A stretch of 64,000 nt of DNA, taken from positions 92,603 to 156,602 of the forward strand of contig QAMH01000007.1 of NCBI GenBank assembly GCA_003149935.1, written 5' to 3'. A program made the position numbers and the translations under genes. A model generated the notes under the pieces. It made no database searches, was not told the DNA's origin, and saw only the letters and a program-made list of their open reading frames with translations. Source of the DNA: Coriobacteriia bacterium. Its GTDB lineage: Bacteria > Actinomycetota > Coriobacteriia > Coriobacteriales > QAMH01. Of this stretch, positions 6,208-58,467 are shown one piece after another (position 1 is the stretch's first letter; each line of letters opens with the position of its first letter).

Positions 6208-6402
6208 AGGTGGACGAGGGCCAACGCATTGCTCGCCTGGTCGGCTTCCGTCGTGGGATGAGACAGCGCCTCTGGGCATTTGTCTCATTCGCCCCTCAAA
6301 AATGCGGGGTCGTACCCGCAGAATCCCTGTGGTGTGACGGCTATCAGCATGCTTCGGGCGCACCCTAGAATCTTCTCATCATCCGATTCGAGGGAGGTTC
6401 CC

Positions 6403-17615: not shown

Positions 17616-18074
17616 TTATGCAGCGCACCCGAGCTCGCTGAGCGCCGTGAGAGTCGCATCCACGTTCTCGGCGTGCCAGTTCTTGTATCCACCGGTGTAT
17701 TGCGAGGCGTATATGCCCGAGAGTCGGACGTCGCTCAGCTCCTTCTGCTGAGTGGTGAGACGTACGCCGCCACTGTTCGTCTCAATATCGATGATCACGT
17801 TGAGCAAGTCATCGACGAGCTTCACCGATTCGATCTCCGAATAGGGGACGACGAGGGAGACGTCCCGTTCGAGAGTCGACCAACAAGGGTCGAAGGGAAG
17901 CAGGATCATCTCGTTTTCGCACATCTGGAGGACAGCGACATCGCACGCACTGAAGAATCGGACGATCTTCTCGCTCAGATCTCCCGCCGCGCCTTTGACG
18001 ATGATGCATCTACCTTCCAGAGGCGTATATCCTGCCTCGATTGCGTATTCCCATACCTTTTCCTCGCGAGCCAT
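17616..18074 (-). CDS. Hypothetical protein (152 aa)
   Basis: Clean ORF co-oriented with its neighbours. No motif recognised. Confidence 0.5.
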   Translation of the reverse strand: MAREEKVWEYAIEAGYTPLEGRCIIVKGAAGDLSEKIVRFFSACDVAVLQMCENEMILLPFDPCWSTLERDVSLVVPYSEIESVKLVDDLLNVIIDIETNSGGVRLTTQQKELSDVRLSGIYASQYTGGYKNWHAENVDATLTALSELGCAA

Positions 18075-45753: not shown

Positions 45754-47004
45754 CTACTCCGTGCTGCGCTTGCGGCCACGCCAGGCAAGTACGGCGAACA
45801 CGACGGCTGCGAGAAACGCGATACCCGCCAGCGTGCCCACGATGGCGATCGTCCTGTCACCGGTTTCGACGAGCGTCATGGTCTTTTCCGTGCCGGTCGT
45901 GTAGGCGTTGATGGTCTCTTCGGCATCCTTCTTGTTCACAGGGTTTTCGAGCATCTCGTCGGTGATCTCGACCGTGTCGTCAACGGCCTCGCCGTTGCCG
46001 GGCGCATCGTCGTTTCCATTCCCGACGAAGTCCTCGACGATCACGTCATCGGGAAGCGTGGTGATGAGGTCGTCATGGTCGAAGATCTGGTCGGGAATCT
46101 CCACGGCATCTGGCAACGTGGTGATCTGATCGTCATAATTGACGTCCCCATCGGGAACTTCCACGGCATCCGGCAAGGTGGTGATCTGGTCGTCGTGGTC
46201 GAAGATGCCATCGGGAATCTCGATGCCATCAGGCAGCGTCGTTGACGAGGGCGTGTAAAGCACGTTGATCACGTTGTTGTCAGGGTCCGTGCCCAGGCGA
46301 ATCTGGGCCGGATACGTGTCGATCACGTAGGTGTCATCAATCTTGTACTCGTAGGCATCGCCCACGATGAGCTTGTCGAAGCGCTGGTTCGTGAAAGTCT
46401 CCGATCCGAGTTTGGTGAACTCGACATCTTGGGGCGCCAGGGCACCGCTCCACGAATCGGCAGTTAGGTCGGCGCCAGTCATAAGATAGTAGTTGACCGT
46501 ATATTCGGAATTCCACAGCCGCACGTAGTTGAGCGTGTAGACGTTTTGGCTCGGATCACGCGACACGACCATCCTGTTGGGCCATCCATCCCAGAAGAAG
46601 TAGCCTGGAATGTCCACGACATAGCTCCAGGCAGTTAGCTCCTGGCCTTCGTGAAAGCCCGAGAGAGTGCGCGTCCCCATGAGGCGAAGGCCATTCTCGT
46701 CTTTGGGTACGTCGGGGTCATCGAACATGACCATCTCGTAGTAGTTGAGCGTGATGGAGCAATTGTCGGCGGGAGAGAGGCCAGCATCTTCGTCGCTAGC
46801 CAGGGTCTGGTCCTGCACTGTTGACGTCGGGACCTCGAGCTCGTTTCCCTGCGTATCCACGACGGTTTGCGTGGGGTTTTCGGCGAAGGCGCTGTAGGCG
46901 CAGTACGCGCTCAGGACAATGCCAATGCACAGGAGCGCAATTGCCGAGACCAGGGTGACCTTGAAGAAACGCATGGAAGTGGGGCCTGAAGCAAGCGTCT
47001 TCAT
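45754..47004 (-). CDS. Cell-surface protein with signal/TM anchor, internal tandem repeats and sortase-type C-terminal sorting signal
   Basis: N-terminal hydrophobic segment. C-terminal LVETG, then a hydrophobic stretch, then an RGRKRSTE tail. Three and a half 20-aa repeats (TLPDxxExPD...DDxIT). Start at ATG 47004 behind an AAGGAGG RBS. Confidence 0.8.
   Translation of the reverse strand: MKTLASGPTSMRFFKVTLVSAIALLCIGIVLSAYCAYSAFAENPTQTVVDTQGNELEVPTSTVQDQTLASDEDAGLSPADNCSITLNYYEMVMFDDPDVPKDENGLRLMGTRTLSGFHEGQELTAWSYVVDIPGYFFWDGWPNRMVVSRDPSQNVYTLNYVRLWNSEYTVNYYLMTGADLTADSWSGALAPQDVEFTKLGSETFTNQRFDKLIVGDAYEYKIDDTYVIDTYPAQIRLGTDPDNNVINVLYTPSSTTLPDGIEIPDGIFDHDDQITTLPDAVEVPDGDVNYDDQITTLPDAVEIPDQIFDHDDLITTLPDDVIVEDFVGNGNDDAPGNGEAVDDTVEITDEMLENPVNKKDAEETINAYTTGTEKTMTLVETGDRTIAIVGTLAGIAFLAAVVFAVLAWRGRKRSTE
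46027..46239. repeat. 60-bp tandem repeat (about 3.5 copies) inside the surface-protein gene
   Basis: Period-60 units such as GCATC(T/C)GGCAA(C/G)GTGGTGATCTG.TCGTC... encode the 20-aa repeats. Confidence 0.8.
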
Positions 47005-47116: not shown

Positions 47117-47310
47117 TGTCATTTCGAGCGAAAAAAGGGAAATCTCTCCATTCCGCGGCCTTGCGGCCGCTCCAGTCGAGATGACAAAAGGGCCAGGCGC
47201 CGCTCCCGCTGTCATTTCGAGCGGAGCGAAGCGCCCCCCCCTGTCATTTCGAGCGAAGCGGTGTCCCACTGTCATTTCGAGCGGAGCGAAGCGTAGTCGA
47301 GAAATCTCAC
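47117..47310. repeat. Cluster of TGTCATTTCGAGCG-family palindromic elements (locus A)
   Basis: A 70-bp unit has inverted ends TGTCATTTCGA...TCGAGATGACA (47117-47186). Three tandem heads CTGTCATTTCGAGCG(G)AGCGAAGCG follow at 47209, 47241 and 47269, the last followed by GTCGAGAAATCTC. Confidence 0.8.
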
Positions 47311-50682: not shown

Positions 50683-52017
50683 ATGAACAAGCAGACCGAA
50701 CATACATCGCGCATGGATGTCATTTCGCTGGTCGTCCTGGTCGTCGTGACGGCGTTCACGGCCCTCTACATGAAGGGCCTGAACAGCGGTATTCCCTACT
50801 ACTACGATAGCATCGGCTATTCGGCCACCATCGGCGGCACCTTCGTCGCGGTGTTCACGCTGGCAAGCACCGTCATGCGTCTGGTCGGTGGGCAGATCAC
50901 CGACCACTTCTCCCATTACCGGGTCCTCATGGCAAGTTTGCTGGGACTGCTTCTGGGCGTCGCCATTCCCGCCGTATGGGACGACTTCTTCGTTGTGATG
51001 GCCGCGCGCGTGCTCCAGGGCGCGGCGTTCGCGCTGGCGACCAATGTCATGACCGTTGCCGTCATGAGCACTGCCTCCATGAAGCATATGGGTCGGCGCA
51101 TGGGAATCAAGGGAGCGGGGACGTCACTGGGCACCATGTTCGGTGCGCTCGTCGCCACGGGACTTCTCGACGGTATCGGATTCCAGGGGTTCTTCGGATT
51201 CTACGTTGCGCTCATGCTGGCCGCCATGCTCATGGTTTTCCTGCTCAAGCGGGCAGAGCGTGCGGAGGCGAAGAGGGCTCAGCAGGCAGCGGCACCGCAA
51301 GGTGAAGACGCGTCCGCGGCATCCACAACCACCACCGCGGACGCGGTGCAGGACACCAAGCGCGAAGAGAAGACGCCGCCTGTCGCGCAGCAAGGCGACA
51401 CGCCCAAGCTCACCGCTGGCCAACGCCTGCGCGCCCTCATCAAGCCGTATCTCATGCCGCAGGTGTTTCCCTTTCTGGCCATGTCGTTTGCGCGCCGCAT
51501 GCCCAAGGGCTTCTGCATCTCGTTCATCCTGATATTCGCCCGATACACCGGAATCGAGATGGGCGCCCTCTTCTTCGTCGTCGCGGGAGCTACGACTCTG
51601 ACTTGCCGGCTGCTGGGCGGCAAACTGTTCGATAGCGAGAAAACCTGGCTGCTCCTGCCCGTGATCTCGGCGCAGATAGTGGGGTTTGCCCTGCTGGCCG
51701 CATTTCCCTCTCTCGTCACGCTCATCGTCGCCGCCGTGGGTTATGGGATCTCCGTCGGACTTAGCTCGCCATTCATCAAGACGCTTACCGCCAAGTCGGC
51801 GCCAAAGGAGCACTGGGGCGTCGTCAACGGGGAGCTGTATTTCTTCGGTGACATGGGCAAGGCGCTGGGCGCTTTCCTAGGCGGCATCATCATCGACATG
51901 CTGAGCAAAAGCCTCATCCCCGAAATCGCGCTGGGCTTCTCCATCGTCACCAGCGTGCTCACGGCAATCGCGCTTATCGCCGGCCATCGCGCCAAGCGCG
52001 CAAATGACCGCTCCTAG
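50683..52017 (+). CDS. MFS transporter with a long charged central loop
   Basis: Polytopic halves flank a hydrophilic loop (RAERAEAKRAQQAAAPQGED...). Confidence 0.8.
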   Translation: MNKQTEHTSRMDVISLVVLVVVTAFTALYMKGLNSGIPYYYDSIGYSATIGGTFVAVFTLASTVMRLVGGQITDHFSHYRVLMASLLGLLLGVAIPAVWDDFFVVMAARVLQGAAFALATNVMTVAVMSTASMKHMGRRMGIKGAGTSLGTMFGALVATGLLDGIGFQGFFGFYVALMLAAMLMVFLLKRAERAEAKRAQQAAAPQGEDASAASTTTTADAVQDTKREEKTPPVAQQGDTPKLTAGQRLRALIKPYLMPQVFPFLAMSFARRMPKGFCISFILIFARYTGIEMGALFFVVAGATTLTCRLLGGKLFDSEKTWLLLPVISAQIVGFALLAAFPSLVTLIVAAVGYGISVGLSSPFIKTLTAKSAPKEHWGVVNGELYFFGDMGKALGAFLGGIIIDMLSKSLIPEIALGFSIVTSVLTAIALIAGHRAKRANDRS

Positions 52018-52961
52018 CCGAAAAGCCTCATGCTGCGCTCGCGCGTGACGACGCCTTGCGCGGCGCTCAGGTGTATGCGCACGGCCTCTTCGTCGCTGTG
52101 GCACGTCTCGAGGAGCGCGTCATGCGTGGGAAGAAGCAGCCCTTCCGTTCGGTCACGCCCCTTTTGCGTCAACTGCAGCAACTTGGTCCGGCGGTTTTCC
52201 GTGCTACGTTCCTTGGAGATGAGCCCCTGAGATTCCAGGGTCTTCATGGGTGCCGTGATGTCGCTGCTCTTCAGGAAAAGGTAGTCGGCGATGCGGGATG
52301 CGGTCACGTTGGGACCGAGCACGTAGAGCGCGAGCAATACGCGGAGCTCGGACGTCTTGAGGCCGAGTTCGCGTAGACGTTGCGCCGTGAGCGTGCGCGA
52401 GATCATGATGGTGTCGAAGAATGCCGTGTCCAGGCGGAATTTGCCGTTCTCGATGCGCTGCGCGTCGTGCAGGGTCACCGCATCGGTCGAACTGGCGAAG
52501 GCGGCTTCGAGCTGCTCGGGCGTGAGGTTCTTCCAGTAGTTCTGCAAGAACTGCCCGACGTGGTAATCCGCCCGCTCGATGGACGAAGCTCCCTTGGCGG
52601 TAAGGGCGAGCGACACTACGCGCATGTCATCGGGGTCTTCCGTCCTCGTGACGAGCCCGTCGTCCACAAGGTGGGGAACTGCAGCCGAAACCGTGCTCAC
52701 GCCGACGCACAGGTTGGCGGCAAGGTCGGTGCTGCGCATGGTCTGCCGCGGGGCCGATAGCAGGCGCAAAAGCATGCGGTACTGCAGAGTCGTGAGAGAA
52801 CAGTCGCTTTCCAGGATGCGACTGATGGATTTGTACAGCAGATTCATGATGGTGAGGTAGTCTGACAGGCCCTCGACTGCGGCGACATGCTGTGGATGAT
52901 TGACGTCCTCGAGTTTGCGGCGTTCCTGGCCAAGTTCTGCTGCGATCATGAAAGCCCCCAT
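52014..52961 (-). CDS. Fused double MarR-family regulator (two wHTH domains in one chain)
   Basis: Two MarR-like modules: (...LTTLQYRMLLRLLSAPRQTMRSTDLAANLCVGVSTVSAAVPHLVDDGLVTR...) and (...LKTSELRVLLALYVLGPNVTASRIADYLFLKSSDITAPMKTLESQGLISK...). Divergent from the Mo enzyme at 53128. Confidence 0.75.
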   Translation of the reverse strand: MGAFMIAAELGQERRKLEDVNHPQHVAAVEGLSDYLTIMNLLYKSISRILESDCSLTTLQYRMLLRLLSAPRQTMRSTDLAANLCVGVSTVSAAVPHLVDDGLVTRTEDPDDMRVVSLALTAKGASSIERADYHVGQFLQNYWKNLTPEQLEAAFASSTDAVTLHDAQRIENGKFRLDTAFFDTIMISRTLTAQRLRELGLKTSELRVLLALYVLGPNVTASRIADYLFLKSSDITAPMKTLESQGLISKERSTENRRTKLLQLTQKGRDRTEGLLLPTHDALLETCHSDEEAVRIHLSAAQGVVTRERSMRLFG

Positions 52962-53127
52962 TACGCTGGCTTTGCGAAAAATTATTCAACCACAATATTA
53001 TTTAATGCATATATTGTTAATGAAAAATGCTTTACATAAGGATGGATGGGCGTAATCTGGTCGTGACTGGTCATCGCGGATGCGTCGCATGCCGCAGCCA
53101 GCAAAGAGAGAGCGAGAGGAGTTTCGC

Positions 53128-55548
53128 ATGTCGGAAGAATCGTTCGTCTACACCGCCTGCCCTGGCTGGGGCGATCACGACTACTGTGCGCTCAAGACCA
53201 TCGTGAAAGATGGCAAGATCGAGCGCATGGAGCGTATCGTTTACTCGGCCCCGGAAGAGCCCGATGGGCACATCTGCCAGAAGGGCTGCCTTGCAGGCCG
53301 TCAGCCCTATGATCCCAAGCGCCTGAAGAAGCCGCTCAAGCGCGTCGGCGAGCGCGGCGAAGGCAAGTGGGAGGAGATCAGCTGGGATCAGGCCCTCGAC
53401 GAGATCGGCGAGAAGCTCTGCAAGATTCGCGACGAGTACGGCCCGGACAAGGTCGTCCTCTGGAATCTTGGCGCAGGCGTTCCCGCCCAGTACAGCTTCG
53501 AGAACCTGATGCCGTTCCGCTTCGCGAACACCTTTGGCGTCACCGTCCCGCTCGGTTCGATCGGCCTGGACAACGGCCCGTTCTATGCCGAGTTCTACAA
53601 TGCCGGCAGCGAGTTTCCGCGCACGGTCATCGACCCGCGCATCATGGTCGGCACGGACCTCATCTACGTGTGGGGCTGCAACCCCATCGAGAACCAGATG
53701 CGCTGCGCCCAGAACCTCGTGCGCGCACGCGAGGCCGGCGCCCGCATCGTCGACCTCGGCCTCATCTTCGACGGCACCGCCGGCTTTGCCGACGAGTTCG
53801 TCGCGATGAAGCCAGCCTCCGACGGCTACCTGGCGATGGCGATGGTCAACTACATCCTGCAAAACGACCTGCAGGCAAGCGAGTACCTGCTCGCTCGCTC
53901 CATCGCTGCCTATCTCGTCGACGATGAGACCGGCCTGCTGGCGCGTGATGGCGAGGGTAACTACCTCGTCTGGGATGCGGCGAGCAATGCGGCCGTGCCC
54001 GTTGCGCCCAAGGCCGGCGCGTATCCCGAGGGTGCCGATATCCCGCTGTTTGGCAGCTATCAAATCGACGGCAAGAGCTACACGACGGCGCTCCAGAAGC
54101 TCAAGGACGCGGCCGCGGAGTACACCTTCGAGTTGGCTGCCGAGAAGTGCGGCATCGGCGCCGAAGACGCCGAGCGCCTCGCGCGTGACTGGGTCGAGGC
54201 CGAGAACGCCTTCATCCTGTCGGGCTATGGTCTGCGCTACCGCAACTCCAATGAGACCTACCGCCAGTTCCTCCTGCTCGGCGCGCTGACCGGCCGCCTG
54301 GGCAAGCCGGGCAGCGGCGTCTTCGAGGCGCTGCAGCTCCAGAGCTGGCCGCTCGTCTTCAACGACCTGCCCATCAGCTGCCCCGATGGCGTGCCCGGCG
54401 TCAAGTCCGTGCCGGTGCGCATGGGCGAGTGGTTCGCCAAGGCCGAGGCTCCCGATAGCCCCTACAAGGCGCTCATCGTGTGCTCGGGCAACCCCGTGCA
54501 CCAGCAGCCCGACCGTCAGCGTTGGCTCGACGTCGTCGATGGCATGGAGCTCGTCGTCGACTACGACGTGTGGCTCACCGACACCGGCGAAATCGCCGAC
54601 TACGTGCTCCCCGACCTCATGTCCTTCGAGCGTGAGGACCTCATCACGGGCGCCTGCTACAACCACATCATCCTGCAGGAGCCGGCCATCGAGCCGCAGG
54701 TTGACGGCCACGAGCCCGTCTGGGTCTTCAGCGAGCTCGCCAAGCGCGTCGGTCTCGGCGACTACTTCACGATGAGTATCCCCGAGTACATCGACATCCG
54801 CCTGCAGACGCAGTACCCGCTGATTGCTGGTGTCCAGCCGCCCGTCACCTACGAGCGCCTCAAGGCCGAGAAGATGATCCGCGCCGCCGCGCCGCCCGAG
54901 CCCAAGTACACGCCATACCTCAACCCCGCCGAGGTCCTCGACAACGAGACCGGCCGCATGGAGATCATGTACTCCGAGAAGCTCGCCGAGCTCGACATGG
55001 CGACGACCAAGGTGCTCGAGCCGAACAAGATCGGCAAGTCGACCGAGTATCCCTACCAGCTCTTCACCGGCCGCCAGCGCTTCTTCATGCAATCGAGCTT
55101 CACCGACGATCCAATCACCGTGAAGCTGTCGGGCGAGACGCCGGCGACGAGGCTCAATCCCGTCCAGGCGCAGCGCCTTGGTCTGGCCGAGGACGACATG
55201 GTCGAGGTCTTCAACGAGCGTGGCCACGTCGTCACGCGCCTCGTGCTCGACGAGAGCGTGCCCGATGGCACCGTTCACGTGTGGTTCGGCTGGCGTCGCC
55301 GCCAGTTCGAGGAGGGCACCTACGCCGAGATCACGCACCAGTGCGCCGGCAAGGATTCGCAGGGCCCGCTCGAGGACAAGTGGTTTGCCGATTGGCTTGC
55401 CGCAGGTCATCATCCCAACCCGTACGTCGAGTCGATGAGTTCGCTCACGGGCTCGACCGACTGCTACTGGGATTCGTGGTGCGACATCCGCAAGTTCGAG
55501 GGTGAGATTACGCCCAATCCGCAGGGCACCATCGTAAAGGAGGCTTAG
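53128..55548 (+). CDS. Molybdopterin (bis-MGD) oxidoreductase catalytic subunit, cytoplasmic type (806 aa)
   Basis: MopB-type core collinear with the other paralogs. Atypical N-terminal Cys spacing (CPGWGDHDYC...CQKGC). No twin-arginine motif. Start at ATG 53128 behind GAGAGGA. Confidence 0.9.
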   Translation: MSEESFVYTACPGWGDHDYCALKTIVKDGKIERMERIVYSAPEEPDGHICQKGCLAGRQPYDPKRLKKPLKRVGERGEGKWEEISWDQALDEIGEKLCKIRDEYGPDKVVLWNLGAGVPAQYSFENLMPFRFANTFGVTVPLGSIGLDNGPFYAEFYNAGSEFPRTVIDPRIMVGTDLIYVWGCNPIENQMRCAQNLVRAREAGARIVDLGLIFDGTAGFADEFVAMKPASDGYLAMAMVNYILQNDLQASEYLLARSIAAYLVDDETGLLARDGEGNYLVWDAASNAAVPVAPKAGAYPEGADIPLFGSYQIDGKSYTTALQKLKDAAAEYTFELAAEKCGIGAEDAERLARDWVEAENAFILSGYGLRYRNSNETYRQFLLLGALTGRLGKPGSGVFEALQLQSWPLVFNDLPISCPDGVPGVKSVPVRMGEWFAKAEAPDSPYKALIVCSGNPVHQQPDRQRWLDVVDGMELVVDYDVWLTDTGEIADYVLPDLMSFEREDLITGACYNHIILQEPAIEPQVDGHEPVWVFSELAKRVGLGDYFTMSIPEYIDIRLQTQYPLIAGVQPPVTYERLKAEKMIRAAAPPEPKYTPYLNPAEVLDNETGRMEIMYSEKLAELDMATTKVLEPNKIGKSTEYPYQLFTGRQRFFMQSSFTDDPITVKLSGETPATRLNPVQAQRLGLAEDDMVEVFNERGHVVTRLVLDESVPDGTVHVWFGWRRRQFEEGTYAEITHQCAGKDSQGPLEDKWFADWLAAGHHPNPYVESMSSLTGSTDCYWDSWCDIRKFEGEITPNPQGTIVKEA

Positions 55549-55552
55549 AGCC

Positions 55553-55972
55553 ATGGCTTACAAGATGTTGGTCGACATTGACCGCTGCATTGGCTGCTGG
55601 ACGTGCGCGATGGGCTGCAAGGTTGGCAACCACCTGGAAGATGACGAGTACCGTGTCGAGATCAAGACGCATGGATCGGGCGCCGGCATCGACCGTCCTG
55701 AGGGCGTCTATCCCGACCTGCACATGTGGTGGCAGCCTATCTACCTGCCCAACTGCACCTTCTGTCCCGAGCGCATGAAGGAGGGCGAACCGCAGTTCTG
55801 CGTAATGGATTGCCCGACGCTTGCGTTGGCCTTTGGCGATGCCGACGACCCGGACTCCGCCTACTCGCAGGCTCGTGCACGACTCGAGGCTCGCGGTGCG
55901 CGGTTCTGGGAGCTCGACGATGCCGGCACGACGACGCGCTCCTGTATCGAGTACGCAAGCACCCGCCAATAA
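55553..55972 (+). CDS. Small 4Fe-4S ferredoxin-type subunit (139 aa)
   Basis: CIGCWTCAMGC and CTFC...CVMDCP motifs. Starts 5 nt after the catalytic subunit stop. Resembles the 111-aa protein at 1183-1518. Confidence 0.85.
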   Translation: MAYKMLVDIDRCIGCWTCAMGCKVGNHLEDDEYRVEIKTHGSGAGIDRPEGVYPDLHMWWQPIYLPNCTFCPERMKEGEPQFCVMDCPTLALAFGDADDPDSAYSQARARLEARGARFWELDDAGTTTRSCIEYASTRQ

Positions 55973-56003
55973 TCAGAGCGCAAATGTGGGGCGATTGCGC
56001 GGG

Positions 56004-56240
56004 TCATGCAAGGAATTTTCGATTTTGTGAGGTTGCAGCACGGCCCGTGCAAAGATTTTTCGATTATGTGAGACTGCAGCGAGGACCTTGCAGAAAAATT
56101 GCGATTATGTGAGACCTTCGGATTACAGGGTCTCACATAATCGAAAAAACGTGCATTCCCCGTCAGGTGGCTTCACACAATCGCGTTTTTTCTGCATATG
56201 CCGCTGAGTGATTACACATAATCGAAAAAAACGTGCATCC
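56004..56240. repeat. Compound palindrome: three ~41-bp units in direct orientation followed by three inverted
   Basis: Unit cores (T/G)CGATT(A/T)TGTGAG(A/G) at 56019, 56060 and 56101 (forward) and at 56129, 56171 and 56211 (reverse). The central perfect 15-bp stem CGATTATGTGAGACC (56102-56116) pairs with 56129-56143 across a 12-nt loop. Confidence 0.85.
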
Positions 56241-56392
56241 TGTTCCTGCGCGAGTGAAGCAAGGCGAAGCGGCCCTCGGTTTTCCGGGGCCGCTTTCGCT
56301 TAGTGAGACAGATGTACCTGTCCAATCTGTCTCATGCTCTCGTTCTGCTGCTAAAATGAAATCATCGCTACCGACTATAAAAGGAGGTTCCC

Positions 56393-56743
56393 ATGAAATA
56401 CGAAATCGTCGATGCCGCCTACGTGCTCGAGCACCTTGGCAAGATGCCCATCGTGGACGTGCGTCCCAAGGACATGTACCTGGAAAGCCGCATTCCCGGT
56501 GCGGTCTCGGCTCCGCTTCTGGAGGCCAAGGAAGCACCGGAGGACACGACCGAGTTCTTCCTGCGCGAGGTCCTCGACGCGGGAATCGACCCCACCAAGG
56601 ACTTCATCGTCTACTGCTACAACGGCGGACTTGCTCGCGAGGCCTGCGACCTGCTCGAGAATGCTGGCAACATCTGCCAGAAATGCTACGAGGGTAGCTG
56701 GATCGACTGGATTTCCGACTCCTCACGCCCTGTCGAGAAATGA
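56393..56743 (+). CDS. Single-domain rhodanese-like sulfurtransferase
   Basis: IVDVRP..., active-site loop CYNGGLAR; 116 aa. RBS AAAGGAGG. Confidence 0.8.
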   Translation: MKYEIVDAAYVLEHLGKMPIVDVRPKDMYLESRIPGAVSAPLLEAKEAPEDTTEFFLREVLDAGIDPTKDFIVYCYNGGLAREACDLLENAGNICQKCYEGSWIDWISDSSRPVEK

Positions 56744-56774
56744 GACAACTGCTCTGAGCAACTGTCTCATTTTT
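56738..56774 (+). terminator. Rho-independent terminator of the rhodanese gene
   Basis: AAATGAGACA (56738-56747) pairs with TGTCTCATTT (56763-72) across a 15-nt loop, followed by a T run. The hairpin includes the TGA stop. Confidence 0.7.
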
Positions 56775-56960
56775 GTCATTTCGGGCGAAGCAGCCGAAGT
56801 GGTCCCCACTGTCATTTCGAGCGAAGCAGCCGAAGGCTGCGAAGTCGAGAAATCTCGGTCTTGCCGTAACGGTAGATCGGGATTTCTCCATTCCGGGGCT
56901 TCGCCCCTCCAGTCGAAATGACAACGGTGAGGGCTTCGCCCCTCCAGTCGAAAAGGGCAA
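56774..56960. repeat. TGTCATTTCGAGCG-family elements (locus C), including one apparently complete 116-bp unit
   Basis: In unit 56809-56924, CTGTCATTTCGAGCG...GTCGAGAAATCTCG...CGGGATTTCTCC...CAGTCGAAATGACAA has outer and inner inverted repeats. A partial head lies at 56774 and a partial tail duplication at 56929-56960. Confidence 0.8.
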
Positions 56961-56974
56961 CGGGGGCAGCCCCG

Positions 56975-58331: not shown

Positions 58332-58467
58332 TCTGTTCAAGGCGGGGCGGAATTCCCCACCGGCGGTAAGCGGCCAGAGGCGCCGTGCAGCCCGCAAACC
58401 CTTCTTCGGAAGGGCCGATCCAGTGAGACTCTGGAGCCGACGGTCATAGTCCGGATGAGAGAGCAGA
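58332..58467 (+). promoter_or_regulatory. FMN riboswitch (RFN element)
   Basis: Conserved blocks AGGCGGGGCGGAATTCCCCACCGGCGGTAAG, AGCCCGC, GATCCAGTGAGACTCTGGAGCCGACGGTCATAGTCCGGATGAGAGA. P1 pairs TCTGTTC (58332-38) with GAGCAGA (58461-67). The RBS follows immediately. Confidence 0.85.

Follow-up and report, generated by a model that had tools for sequence, protein, structure and literature searches.

The subject of this analysis is a palindromic array of short repeated modules at positions 55997-56240 of a 64,000-nt stretch of DNA from a Coriobacteriia bacterium (the window), where it lies between the gene for a 4Fe-4S (Fe-S) subunit, encoded behind a molybdopterin oxidoreductase (Mo-enzyme), and a rhodanese gene. 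Genes within 8 kb of the array encode the Mo-enzyme, a MarR protein, an MFS transporter, the rhodanese, an aminotransferase, and an ECF transporter (Table 1). The window matches a metagenome-assembled genome of a Coriobacteriia bacterium: four of its proteins that were looked up have exact copies in the protein collection, three of them under GenBank accessions PWL785xx. The 90%-identity cluster of the Fe-S protein takes in Adlercreutzia faecimuris, which marks the organism as an Adlercreutzia-like representative of the Eggerthellaceae. There is very little doubt that the array belongs to a dispersed repeat family.

Within the window, the element consists of three forward and then three inverted units with a period of about 41 bp. 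The forward cores, CGATT(A/T)TGTGAG, begin at 56020, 56061, and 56102, and the inverted cores end at 56143, 56183, and 56224, with core-to-core steps of 41, 41, 41, 40, and 41. At the centre, CGATTATGTGAGACC (56102-56116) and GGTCTCACATAATCG (56129-56143) form a perfect inverted repeat of 15 bp that encloses a 12-nt loop. An earlier note on this DNA had described the three forward and three inverted units as well as the perfect 15-bp stem, all of which we confirm; its coordinates were right to within 1-2 nt. Only 26-27 nt of each 41-nt unit are actually repeated, while the intervening 14-15 nt are mutually unrelated. These spacers are also noncomplementary across the dyad, leaving only the 27-nt modules complementary to each other, and the array therefore does not form one continuous long hairpin. 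The best partners are not strictly the mirror pairs (U2/U4, 100%; U3/U5, 88%; U1/U6, 79%). Thus, of the earlier proposal that each arm unit pairs with its mirror partner, the mutual complementarity of the modules stood, whereas complementarity of the spacers and strict mirror partnership did not.

The clustering of six units is not a chance occurrence. Three exact 14-mers and three copies with 3 mismatches all fall within the array, the other match in the window at up to 3 mismatches being a single isolated one at 58416, and a hidden Markov model (HMM) of the unit scored nothing at or above 12 bits across the 64 kb outside the array. Folding, which the earlier note had recommended as a check, gave values far below those of shuffled sequences: -136.7 kcal/mol for RNA of 55990-56300, a stretch that takes in the downstream terminator (z = -7.2), and -52 kcal/mol for DNA of 56000-56245 (z = -5.9). 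No Rfam 15 entry matched any part of the array, even at E <= 10.

Table 1. Positions of the array modules and of neighbouring features in the window
Feature	Position	Strand	Remarks
Double-MarR protein gene	52014-52961		near the array
822-aa molybdopterin oxidoreductase gene	53080-55548		precedes the 139-aa Fe-S gene
139-aa 4Fe-4S subunit gene (upstream gene)	55553-55972	+	stop codon 35 nt before U1
Whole present/absent segment	55973-56247	.	array plus ~34 nt on its left and ~10 nt on its right (alignment)
Module U1, forward	56007-56033	+	TGCAAGGAATTTTCGATTTTGTGAGGT; unit HMM 19 bits
Module U2, forward	56048-56074	+	TGCAAAGATTTTTCGATTATGTGAGAC; unit HMM 23 bits
Module U3, forward, innermost	56089-56115	+	TGCAGAAAAATTGCGATTATGTGAGAC; unit HMM 22 bits
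Central 14-nt spacer, switch of module polarity	56116-56129	.	as long as the spacers between direct modules; 12-nt loop 56117-56128
Module U4, inverted, innermost	56130-56155	-	GTCTCACATAATCGAAAAAACGTGCA; unit HMM 18 bits
Module U5, inverted	56171-56196	-	CTTCACACAATCGCGTTTTTTCTGCA; unit HMM 13 bits
Module U6, inverted, outermost	56212-56237	-	TTACACATAATCGAAAAAAACGTGCA; unit HMM 20 bits
GC-rich terminator-like hairpin	56264-56299	+	GCGAAGCGGCCCTCGG-TTTT-CCGGGGCCGCTTTCGC, then TT
116-aa rhodanese gene (downstream gene)	56393-56743	+	own promoter region; own terminator 56741-56774

A dispersed family of arrays with one lattice and one polarity

Arrays of the same kind occur at many other loci. 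An exact-pattern search with TGCA-N8-9-CGATTATGTGAGAC in one genome per species (185,579 species) returned 11 matches, 4 of them real and all in gut Coriobacteriia metagenome-assembled genomes (two genomes). One of these, MGYG-HGUT-02074, alone holds three unrelated intergenic array loci, the fourth real match being an orthologue in the second genome. We also scanned metagenome contigs with a looser two-core pattern and filtered the output; the family-wide figures given below include the matches listed in that scan. This yielded at least ~28 loci with true arrays and, after grouping of orthologues, at least ~15 independent loci, all in gut Coriobacteriia (Eggerthellaceae, Adlercreutzia-like), the clade to which the family is restricted. 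Copy number is low: the 64-kb window has one array, and ~300 kb of flanking DNA one more. Short-read contigs often terminate inside arrays (L005, L012, L013, L038, L050, and L068), as is typically the effect of multicopy repeats on assemblies. Full-text literature searches, the core sequence included, turned up no description of such a family, which is apparently undescribed.

No blastn similarity to the array was found in 72,556 plasmids or 50,697 phages. Seven matches in viral contigs were attributed to chance, none of them reaching 12 bits with the unit HMM. A plasmid or phage iteron or centromere array was ruled out on the grounds of the chromosomal housekeeping contexts and this lack of plasmid and phage similarity. 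Also judged a chance likeness was a tandem array, AT-rich and with a period of 40/41 nt, that an unrelated metagenome contig of low GC content carries (L143, 2860-3160). This array shares CACATAATCGA with the module, but its units all have one orientation and no TGCA box.

The building block of the arrays is an AT-rich 27-bp module, composed of TG(C/T)A, 2 nt, an A/T tract of 6-7 nt, and TT(T/G)CGATT(A/G)TGTGAGAC. In a logo of 100 distinct units, TG(C/T)A occupies positions -13 to -10, a strict A/T tract positions -6 to -4, TT(T/G) positions -3 to -1, and CGATT(A/G/T)TGTGAG(A)(C) positions 0 to 13; information is high from -13 to +13 and about zero in the spacer. The module so defined is asymmetric, with the TGCA box followed by the A/T tract and then by CGATTnTGTGAG. 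The spacers are 14 bp long, GC-rich (58% GC, compared to 37% in the modules), and of arbitrary sequence, and together with the 27-bp module they make up the 41-bp period. A typical array on contig L133 (1730-1810) has, at two of its lattice positions, the variant module TGTAGGTTTTTTGCGAAAGTGTGCAG with the core GCGAAAGTGTGCAG instead of CGATTGTGTGAAG; the family therefore has subtypes.

Spacing is strict. Among 81 pairs of neighbouring cores, 65 were 41 bp apart, eight 40 bp, and three 42 bp, placing 76/81 at 41±1 bp; the others were 52 bp (41+11) apart in two cases and about two units apart (72, 78, and 82 bp) in three. The earlier reading of the window array as six phased sites about four helical turns apart holds, and the family-wide conservation of the 41-bp lattice strengthens it. 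Order is regular as well: an array opens with one to three (rarely four) forward modules and closes with one to three inverted ones, with a single polarity switch at a spacer that is also 14 nt long and across which the arms always abut. In every array the TG(C/T)A box points outward and GAGAC inward, and the opposite order, inverted then forward, was never observed among the arrays examined. The arms are often unequal (1+3, 2+3, 3+1), total lengths range from 150 to 250 bp, and the inverted arm of some arrays has U-rich tracts behind the core.

Comparison of orthologous arrays indicates which of these features are held in place. Over six orthologous pairs, modules differed at 110/836 positions (13%) and spacers at 115/353 (33%; Fisher p = 6e-14). 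One of these pairs, window/L002, is confounded by a recombination junction inside U2; without it the figures are 15% (103/674) and 36% (102/284), respectively. For the pair L058/L134, divergence amounts to 12% in modules and 23% in spacers; the flanking genes, hypB and ahcY, differ by 25-30% at their third codon positions. That is, modules of orthologous arrays diverge two to three times more slowly than spacers or third codon positions, and we therefore conclude that the spacers drift roughly neutrally while the modules are held back. Insertions and deletions between orthologous arrays measured 1, 11, 38, and 41 nt, of which 38+1+11 belong to one alignment (window versus L130); the 41-nt unit indels exclude a coding role.

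Between nonorthologous arrays, similarity is confined to single modules of 25-31 nt, with two exceptions. The U1-spacer-U2 segment of the window matches U2-spacer-U3 of L026 over 61 nt at 87%, which appears to be residual multiunit homology between different loci, and a local duplication is found in L038.

Base pairing, on the other hand, is not what selection appears to maintain. In ten independent arrays, 72.6% of the cells of mirrored innermost modules pair, versus 74.0% with shuffled partners. These modules show no excess covariation (0.135 versus 0.158, with 416/500 shuffles at least as high), and a second, separate shuffle test of mirrored modules likewise detected none. It is therefore the module sequence and the lattice spacing that are constrained, and not hairpin complementarity. 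A hairpin or cruciform, as envisaged in the earlier note, remains physically possible but is not conserved, given the absence of covariation, the noncomplementary spacers, and the unequal arms.

Arrays are always found between genes, with at least one stop codon 1-35 nt away. Some fill convergent gaps entirely, as between hypB and ahcY, where 16 and 17 nt are left over. The earlier note had contrasted its proposal with a dispersed repeat of no positional preference; the repeat is indeed dispersed, yet the preference for intergenic sites hugging stop codons is evident. Genes within 5 kb of 12 independent arrays have housekeeping or metabolic functions (ThiC, PntB, AccA, AhcY, TatC, peptidases, and MFS transporters). 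Among the families listed for these neighbourhoods, no regulator, transposase, or integrase recurs, nor does a RAYT (Y1 transposase) gene; the recurring ones are generic only (MFS, Mo-enzymes). No array is present at the hypB locus of relatives whose HypB shares 82-90% identity with that of the array-bearing locus L058; these relatives carry an extra IF-2B-family gene between hypB and ahcY, leaving no clean empty site.

Alleles, terminator, and neighbours at the window locus

For the window locus itself, we compared contigs carrying its flanking genes, designated by L numbers. Five allelic states were seen: a 3+3 array identical to that of the window (L001 and others), a 3+3 array with a diverged first unit (L002 and L161), a 3+1 array with exactly 81 nt missing (L006 and L015), a 2+3 array with one spacer 11 nt longer in a more distant lineage (L130), and no array (L003, L004, and L155-157). 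The 81-nt deletion removes two units, comprising part of U4, U5, and part of U6, and the unit missing from the orthologous array of L130 is U3. The left flank of the segment that is present or absent as a whole includes a possible degenerate, out-of-phase module at 55979-56003. In array-less alleles, the Fe-S stop codon is followed by ~34-45 nt with a small hairpin remnant (...GAGCAACTGTCTCAT) and then by the common terminator hairpin. Flanking genes are nearly identical between the array-less L004 and the 3+3 contig L002 (Fe-S gene, 99.5%; rhodanese gene, 99.7%), and the array therefore represents a genuine presence/absence polymorphism among close relatives.

The Mo-oxidoreductase/Fe-S operon (53080-55972) is a recombination mosaic when compared with L002, L003, L004, L130, L155, and L161: the operon, like its Fe-S gene, shows 85-92% nucleotide identity in strains that are 98.6-100% identical in the rhodanese gene. 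Window-type and L002-type sequence meet within U2. In L015 a window-type operon is joined to an L002-type array; in L004 the operon is of the L002 type and the allele array-less. Further upstream of the Mo operon, some strains have HTH (helix-turn-helix)/HipA toxin-antitoxin genes instead of the MFS transporter gene.

The array, which the earlier note had set apart from a terminator by its size and order, is not a terminator. The GC-rich hairpin at 56264-56299 is kept in every allele, array-bearing or array-less, and is probably the real 3' end of the Mo-enzyme/Fe-S operon; its persistence in array-less alleles rules out the array as the operon's terminator. A terminator scan picked out just two sites, this conserved hairpin (at 56277) and a weak stem of 5 bp at 56038, and nothing in the array centre. 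The central stem of the window array is AT-rich and continues into TAATCGAAAAAA, an A-run and not a U-run, so that an intrinsic terminator was rejected for want of a GC-rich stem and a U-tract. A promoter scan of the array found no promoter-like site, and a CATAAT motif considered as an outward -10 box was dropped because no conserved -35 element or TG extension accompanies it. The window array is a passenger in the 3' untranslated region (3' UTR), situated between the Fe-S stop codon and the operon's own terminator; it does not serve the neighbouring MarR, Mo-enzyme, or rhodanese genes as an operator.

A separate palindrome at 56304-56334 (TGAGACAGAT...ATCTGTCTCA) lies just upstream of an extended -10-like box, TGcTAAAAT (56349-56357), which precedes the rhodanese ATG by 35 nt, and the right arm of this palindrome covers the expected -35 position. 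Judged by this layout, it may be a candidate operator of the rhodanese gene. Stricter promoter-scan criteria found no promoter at 56304-56357.

Explanations for the arrays, and other repeats nearby

The best overall explanation, on which we would place an even bet, is a clade-restricted family of interspersed intergenic arrays whose modules are phased binding sites. For the mechanism itself, phased binding of a protein of the transposase or recombinase type, we put the chances just short of even. Each 27-bp module would be a bipartite recognition site of one sequence-specific DNA-binding protein, its two or three conserved boxes joined by the A/T tract. A period of 41 bp (3.9 turns at 10.5 bp/turn; 52 bp corresponds to 4.95 turns) would bring the protomers onto nearly one face of the helix, where they could form a cooperative, two-armed nucleoprotein complex. 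A right-pointing row meeting a left-pointing row would follow, by analogy, the logic of multisite inverted transposon ends. The array itself would be a cargo-less, nonautonomous element, similar to a MITE (miniature inverted-repeat transposable element) or a BIME, that spread into gaps next to stop codons and has since been kept in place, altering mainly through gain or loss of whole 41-bp units.

Several observations weigh against this proposal. No target-site duplication was found at the outer TGCA boundaries of 20 arrays, and degeneracy is, if anything, greater in the outermost modules than further in, whereas transposon termini would require the reverse. Among at least ~40 array-bearing loci, no copy has cargo between its arms, and neither a parent element nor a linked transposase was found in these loci, in plasmids and phages, or among neighbouring genes. 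The spacers are essentially locus-unique, unlike young MITE families, which share their whole sequence. Slow evolution of modules in place is unexpected for a purely selfish element, barring homogenising gene conversion. At the window locus, array-bearing and array-less alleles differ by an untidy-ended replacement with no clean insertion; both the array-bearing (window, L002, L161, and L130) and the array-less class (L003/L004 and L155-157) are old, and both have been reshuffled by homologous recombination. Finally, the case for helical phasing is built on spacing statistics and only two +11 cases.

Many of these points are what one would expect if the arrays were a host-selected chromosomal lattice, with the modules as cis-sites for a nucleoid-associated, insulating, or recombination-related host protein rather than as mobile ends. 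We regard this as unlikely, yet as a serious rival. It would account for modules evolving two to three times more slowly than spacers and third codon positions, for a 41-bp lattice retained although the spacers are saturated with substitutions, for arrays staying at the same loci across species-level divergence, for the failure to find target-site duplications, a parent element, or terminal specialisation (20 arrays; at least ~40 loci), and for several recombination junctions in or at arrays. An essential role is, however, argued against by the presence or absence of whole arrays in near-identical strains and by close relatives that are array-less at the same loci; copy number is low (one in 64 kb and one more in the ~300 kb of flanking DNA), the family occupies a very narrow taxonomic range, hugging of stop codons is typical of tolerated insertions, and the junction observations are biased towards the surroundings of arrays. 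An element acting at the transcript level, that is, a 3'-UTR RNA hairpin serving as mRNA stabiliser, RNase III target, or aid to termination or roadblocking in the manner proposed for REP, BOX, or ERIC, strikes us as distinctly unlikely. The array does sit between stop codon and terminator in the window and in the L056 group, other arrays occupy convergent gaps that lack another obvious terminator, the fold is predicted to be very stable, and U-rich tracts follow the core on the inverted arm of some arrays. Yet mirrored modules show neither covariation nor an excess of pairing, the spacers are noncomplementary and the arms often unequal, the reverse order with TGCA inward would fold just as well but was never observed, the central stem in the window is followed by an A-run with no terminator predicted in the array centre, and the orientation of the T-rich tract is independent of the direction of the flanking genes.

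A decaying, functionless selfish repeat is in our view quite improbable. Here, the apparent conservation of the modules would stem solely from gene conversion between copies homogenising the 27-bp stretches, and the 41-bp period would be a legacy of an ancestral tandem and inverted duplication. Changes of unit number in 41/81-nt steps, typical of slippage or unequal recombination, are in keeping with such a history, as are recombination junctions inside modules and the degenerate outer modules. However, a stretch of 27 bp is barely long enough for homologous conversion, conversion confined to modules would not preserve the length of spacers whose sequence is saturated, and both length changes observed were +11 nt. 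Lastly, the earlier note had named nearby regulators such as the double MarR as candidates for binding tests; on a locus-specific reading, the double-MarR protein would bind an operator array or cruciform and control the Mo operon or the rhodanese gene. Six phased sites do lie near a regulator gene, but this idea can be very nearly dismissed: the modules recur at at least ~15 unrelated loci with no MarR or Mo-enzyme neighbours, the strains represented by L003, L004, and L155-157 keep the MarR, Mo-enzyme, Fe-S, and rhodanese genes without the array, and the array lies downstream of the operon, with the terminator separating it from the rhodanese promoter.

Arrays contain or adjoin several junctions of mosaics or rearrangements (window versus L002, in U2; L015; L004; L038; L068), an observation biased by our having looked near arrays only. 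In L038 (1-1630), two arrays 1.4 kb apart have their first two units and 9 nt of left flank in common, which looks like a local duplication or recombination between arrays. They bracket a 321-aa open reading frame (ORF) with weak Pfam matches to AbiEi_1/DUF559 (PD-(D/E)xK-like), the stop codon of which falls in the first TGTAA of the second array. This ORF was rejected as a cognate gene, since its homologues in other Coriobacteriia (57-67% identity) precede the rplC operon and have no arrays near them.

Among known systems, the arrays resemble REP/BIME, BOX, ERIC, and MITEs in function and ecology and, by architectural analogy, most resemble multisite transposon ends in mechanism; they nonetheless fail defining features of each system compared. 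REP/BIME elements of enterobacteria and pseudomonads include REPINs, which are mobilised by RAYT transposases. Like the arrays, REP/BIME elements are extragenic, dispersed, and near gene 3' ends, consist of short units in both orientations whose number varies between strains, have no target-site duplications, and comprise units conserved in place and perhaps protein-bound. However, the REP unit is a palindrome of ~35 nt (in general an imperfect one of ~20-40 nt whose 5' tetranucleotide is conserved) and the array module an asymmetric 27-bp sequence; BIME units alternate in orientation and have conserved linkers, whereas arrays form two blocks on a strict 41-bp lattice with unconserved spacers; and array copy number is apparently much lower. 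BOX elements of Streptococcus pneumoniae (boxA-boxBn-boxC) and ERIC/IRU elements are likewise modular and intergenic, with variable internal modules and overall dyad symmetry, no ORF and no known transposase, and are often cotranscribed with their neighbours. BOX modules, in contrast, are contiguous and conserved over their full length, with no unique spacers of fixed length and no polarity rule, and their sequence is unrelated to that of the arrays. MITEs such as Correia/CREE, RUP, and MITEAba12 share with the arrays a length of 150-250 bp, a noncoding and intergenic nature, inverted ends, dispersal, and presence/absence polymorphism, but MITE copies share full-length sequence and usually have target-site duplications and a recognisable parent insertion sequence, whereas arrays share only modules.

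Multisite ends are exemplified by the TnsB sites of Tn7, the L1-L3/R1-R3 sites of MuA, the terminal repeats of IS21 and Tn402, and the inverted repeat-direct repeat (IR-DR) ends of Tc1-like elements such as Sleeping Beauty and Bari3. Each such end has several direct, bipartite sites of ~20-30 bp, with the two ends inverted and a TG...CA-type box outward, and the sites assemble a multiprotomer complex. The arrays have this layout, with one to three modules per arm and TG(C/T)A outward, although the resemblance is one of architecture only. Known multisite ends are asymmetric and irregularly spaced, flank transposase genes, generate 4-8-bp target-site duplications, and have a specialised terminal site, whereas arrays have uniform spacing, abutting arms without cargo, no target-site duplication, and a TGCA box on every module. 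Centromere and iteron arrays, such as F sopC with its twelve 43-bp repeats, share with the arrays protein-binding repeats at a period of about four turns. They are, however, single-copy, located on plasmids or phages by par or rep genes, with all repeats direct, in contrast to chromosomal, multilocus, and mirrored arrays. CRISPR arrays have one orientation, spacers of ~26-72 nt, and cas genes or a leader nearby, compared to a flip in midarray and 14-nt spacers here. Consensuses of the DnaA box, the CRP half-site, IHF, and sigma-54 gave no convincing fit.

REP/BIME, BOX, ERIC, and Correia elements shape the stability of mRNAs as well as recombination and the plasticity of genomes, and strain typing uses them as markers. 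For Eggerthellaceae, which metabolise drugs and diet in the gut, there seems to be no earlier description of interspersed intergenic repeats. What sets the present arrays apart is a strict four-turn lattice with free spacers, a one-way polarity, and constraint on sequence and spacing instead of pairing, features that predict one specific binding protein. There is a small chance that the arrays constitute a new kind of chromosomal cis-element, a selected binding lattice that nucleates a two-armed complex on one face of the DNA. If so, this complex could be a hotspot of recombination or insertion, an insulator of transcription or replication between genes, or the dock of a domesticated transposase or recombinase, which would give a partnership like that of REP and RAYT, with a wholly different architecture, in a little-studied clade of gut actinobacteria. 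On the practical side, arrays break short-read assemblies and coincide with recombination-mosaic junctions around accessory Mo-enzyme operons, and their strain-variable unit number could serve strain tracking. For the window locus the outcome is deflationary: the array is no regulatory device of the Mo-enzyme or rhodanese genes.

Modular palindromic repeats seem to abound in the genome of the window. Five palindromes in the window conform to TGAGAC-N14-19-GTCTCA, versus 0.11 expected, a strong excess that none of 100 shuffles reached. Their sites are 6259-6287, 17756-17784, 56304-56334, 56741-56769, and the array centre (56110-56135), the TGAGAC motif being common to the array core. The copy at 56741-56769 starts with the TGA stop codon of the rhodanese gene and is followed by TTTTT; it is therefore taken as the terminator of that gene. 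A degenerate copy of the TGAGAC hairpin stands exactly at the array position in the array-less alleles L003, L004, and L155, and L116 has TGAGAC hairpins on both flanks of its array.

A third repeat family, of ~30-nt units ((C)TGTCATTTCGAGCG(G)AGCGAAGC...) that form direct clusters and have inverted partners (...CTCCAGTCGAAATGACA), looks REP/BIME-like. It is found at 56775-56965, in the gap between the rhodanese and aminotransferase genes, and at 47150-47310 (TRF periods of 28-32 nt), and a similar motif lies upstream of a rhodanese homologue in L160. In a different gene context, a perfect palindrome of ~70 nt (GGATGAGTAAAAGGGACGTTCCAAAACGCTCAT...ATGAGCGTTTTGGAACGTCCCTTTTACTCATCC) is located upstream of a 90%-identical rhodanese homologue (L158, 2862-2932). 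Finally, the window contains, at 46042-46239, a 60-nt tandem repeat of 3.3 copies (73% match; TRF score, 200) that is probably within a coding region.

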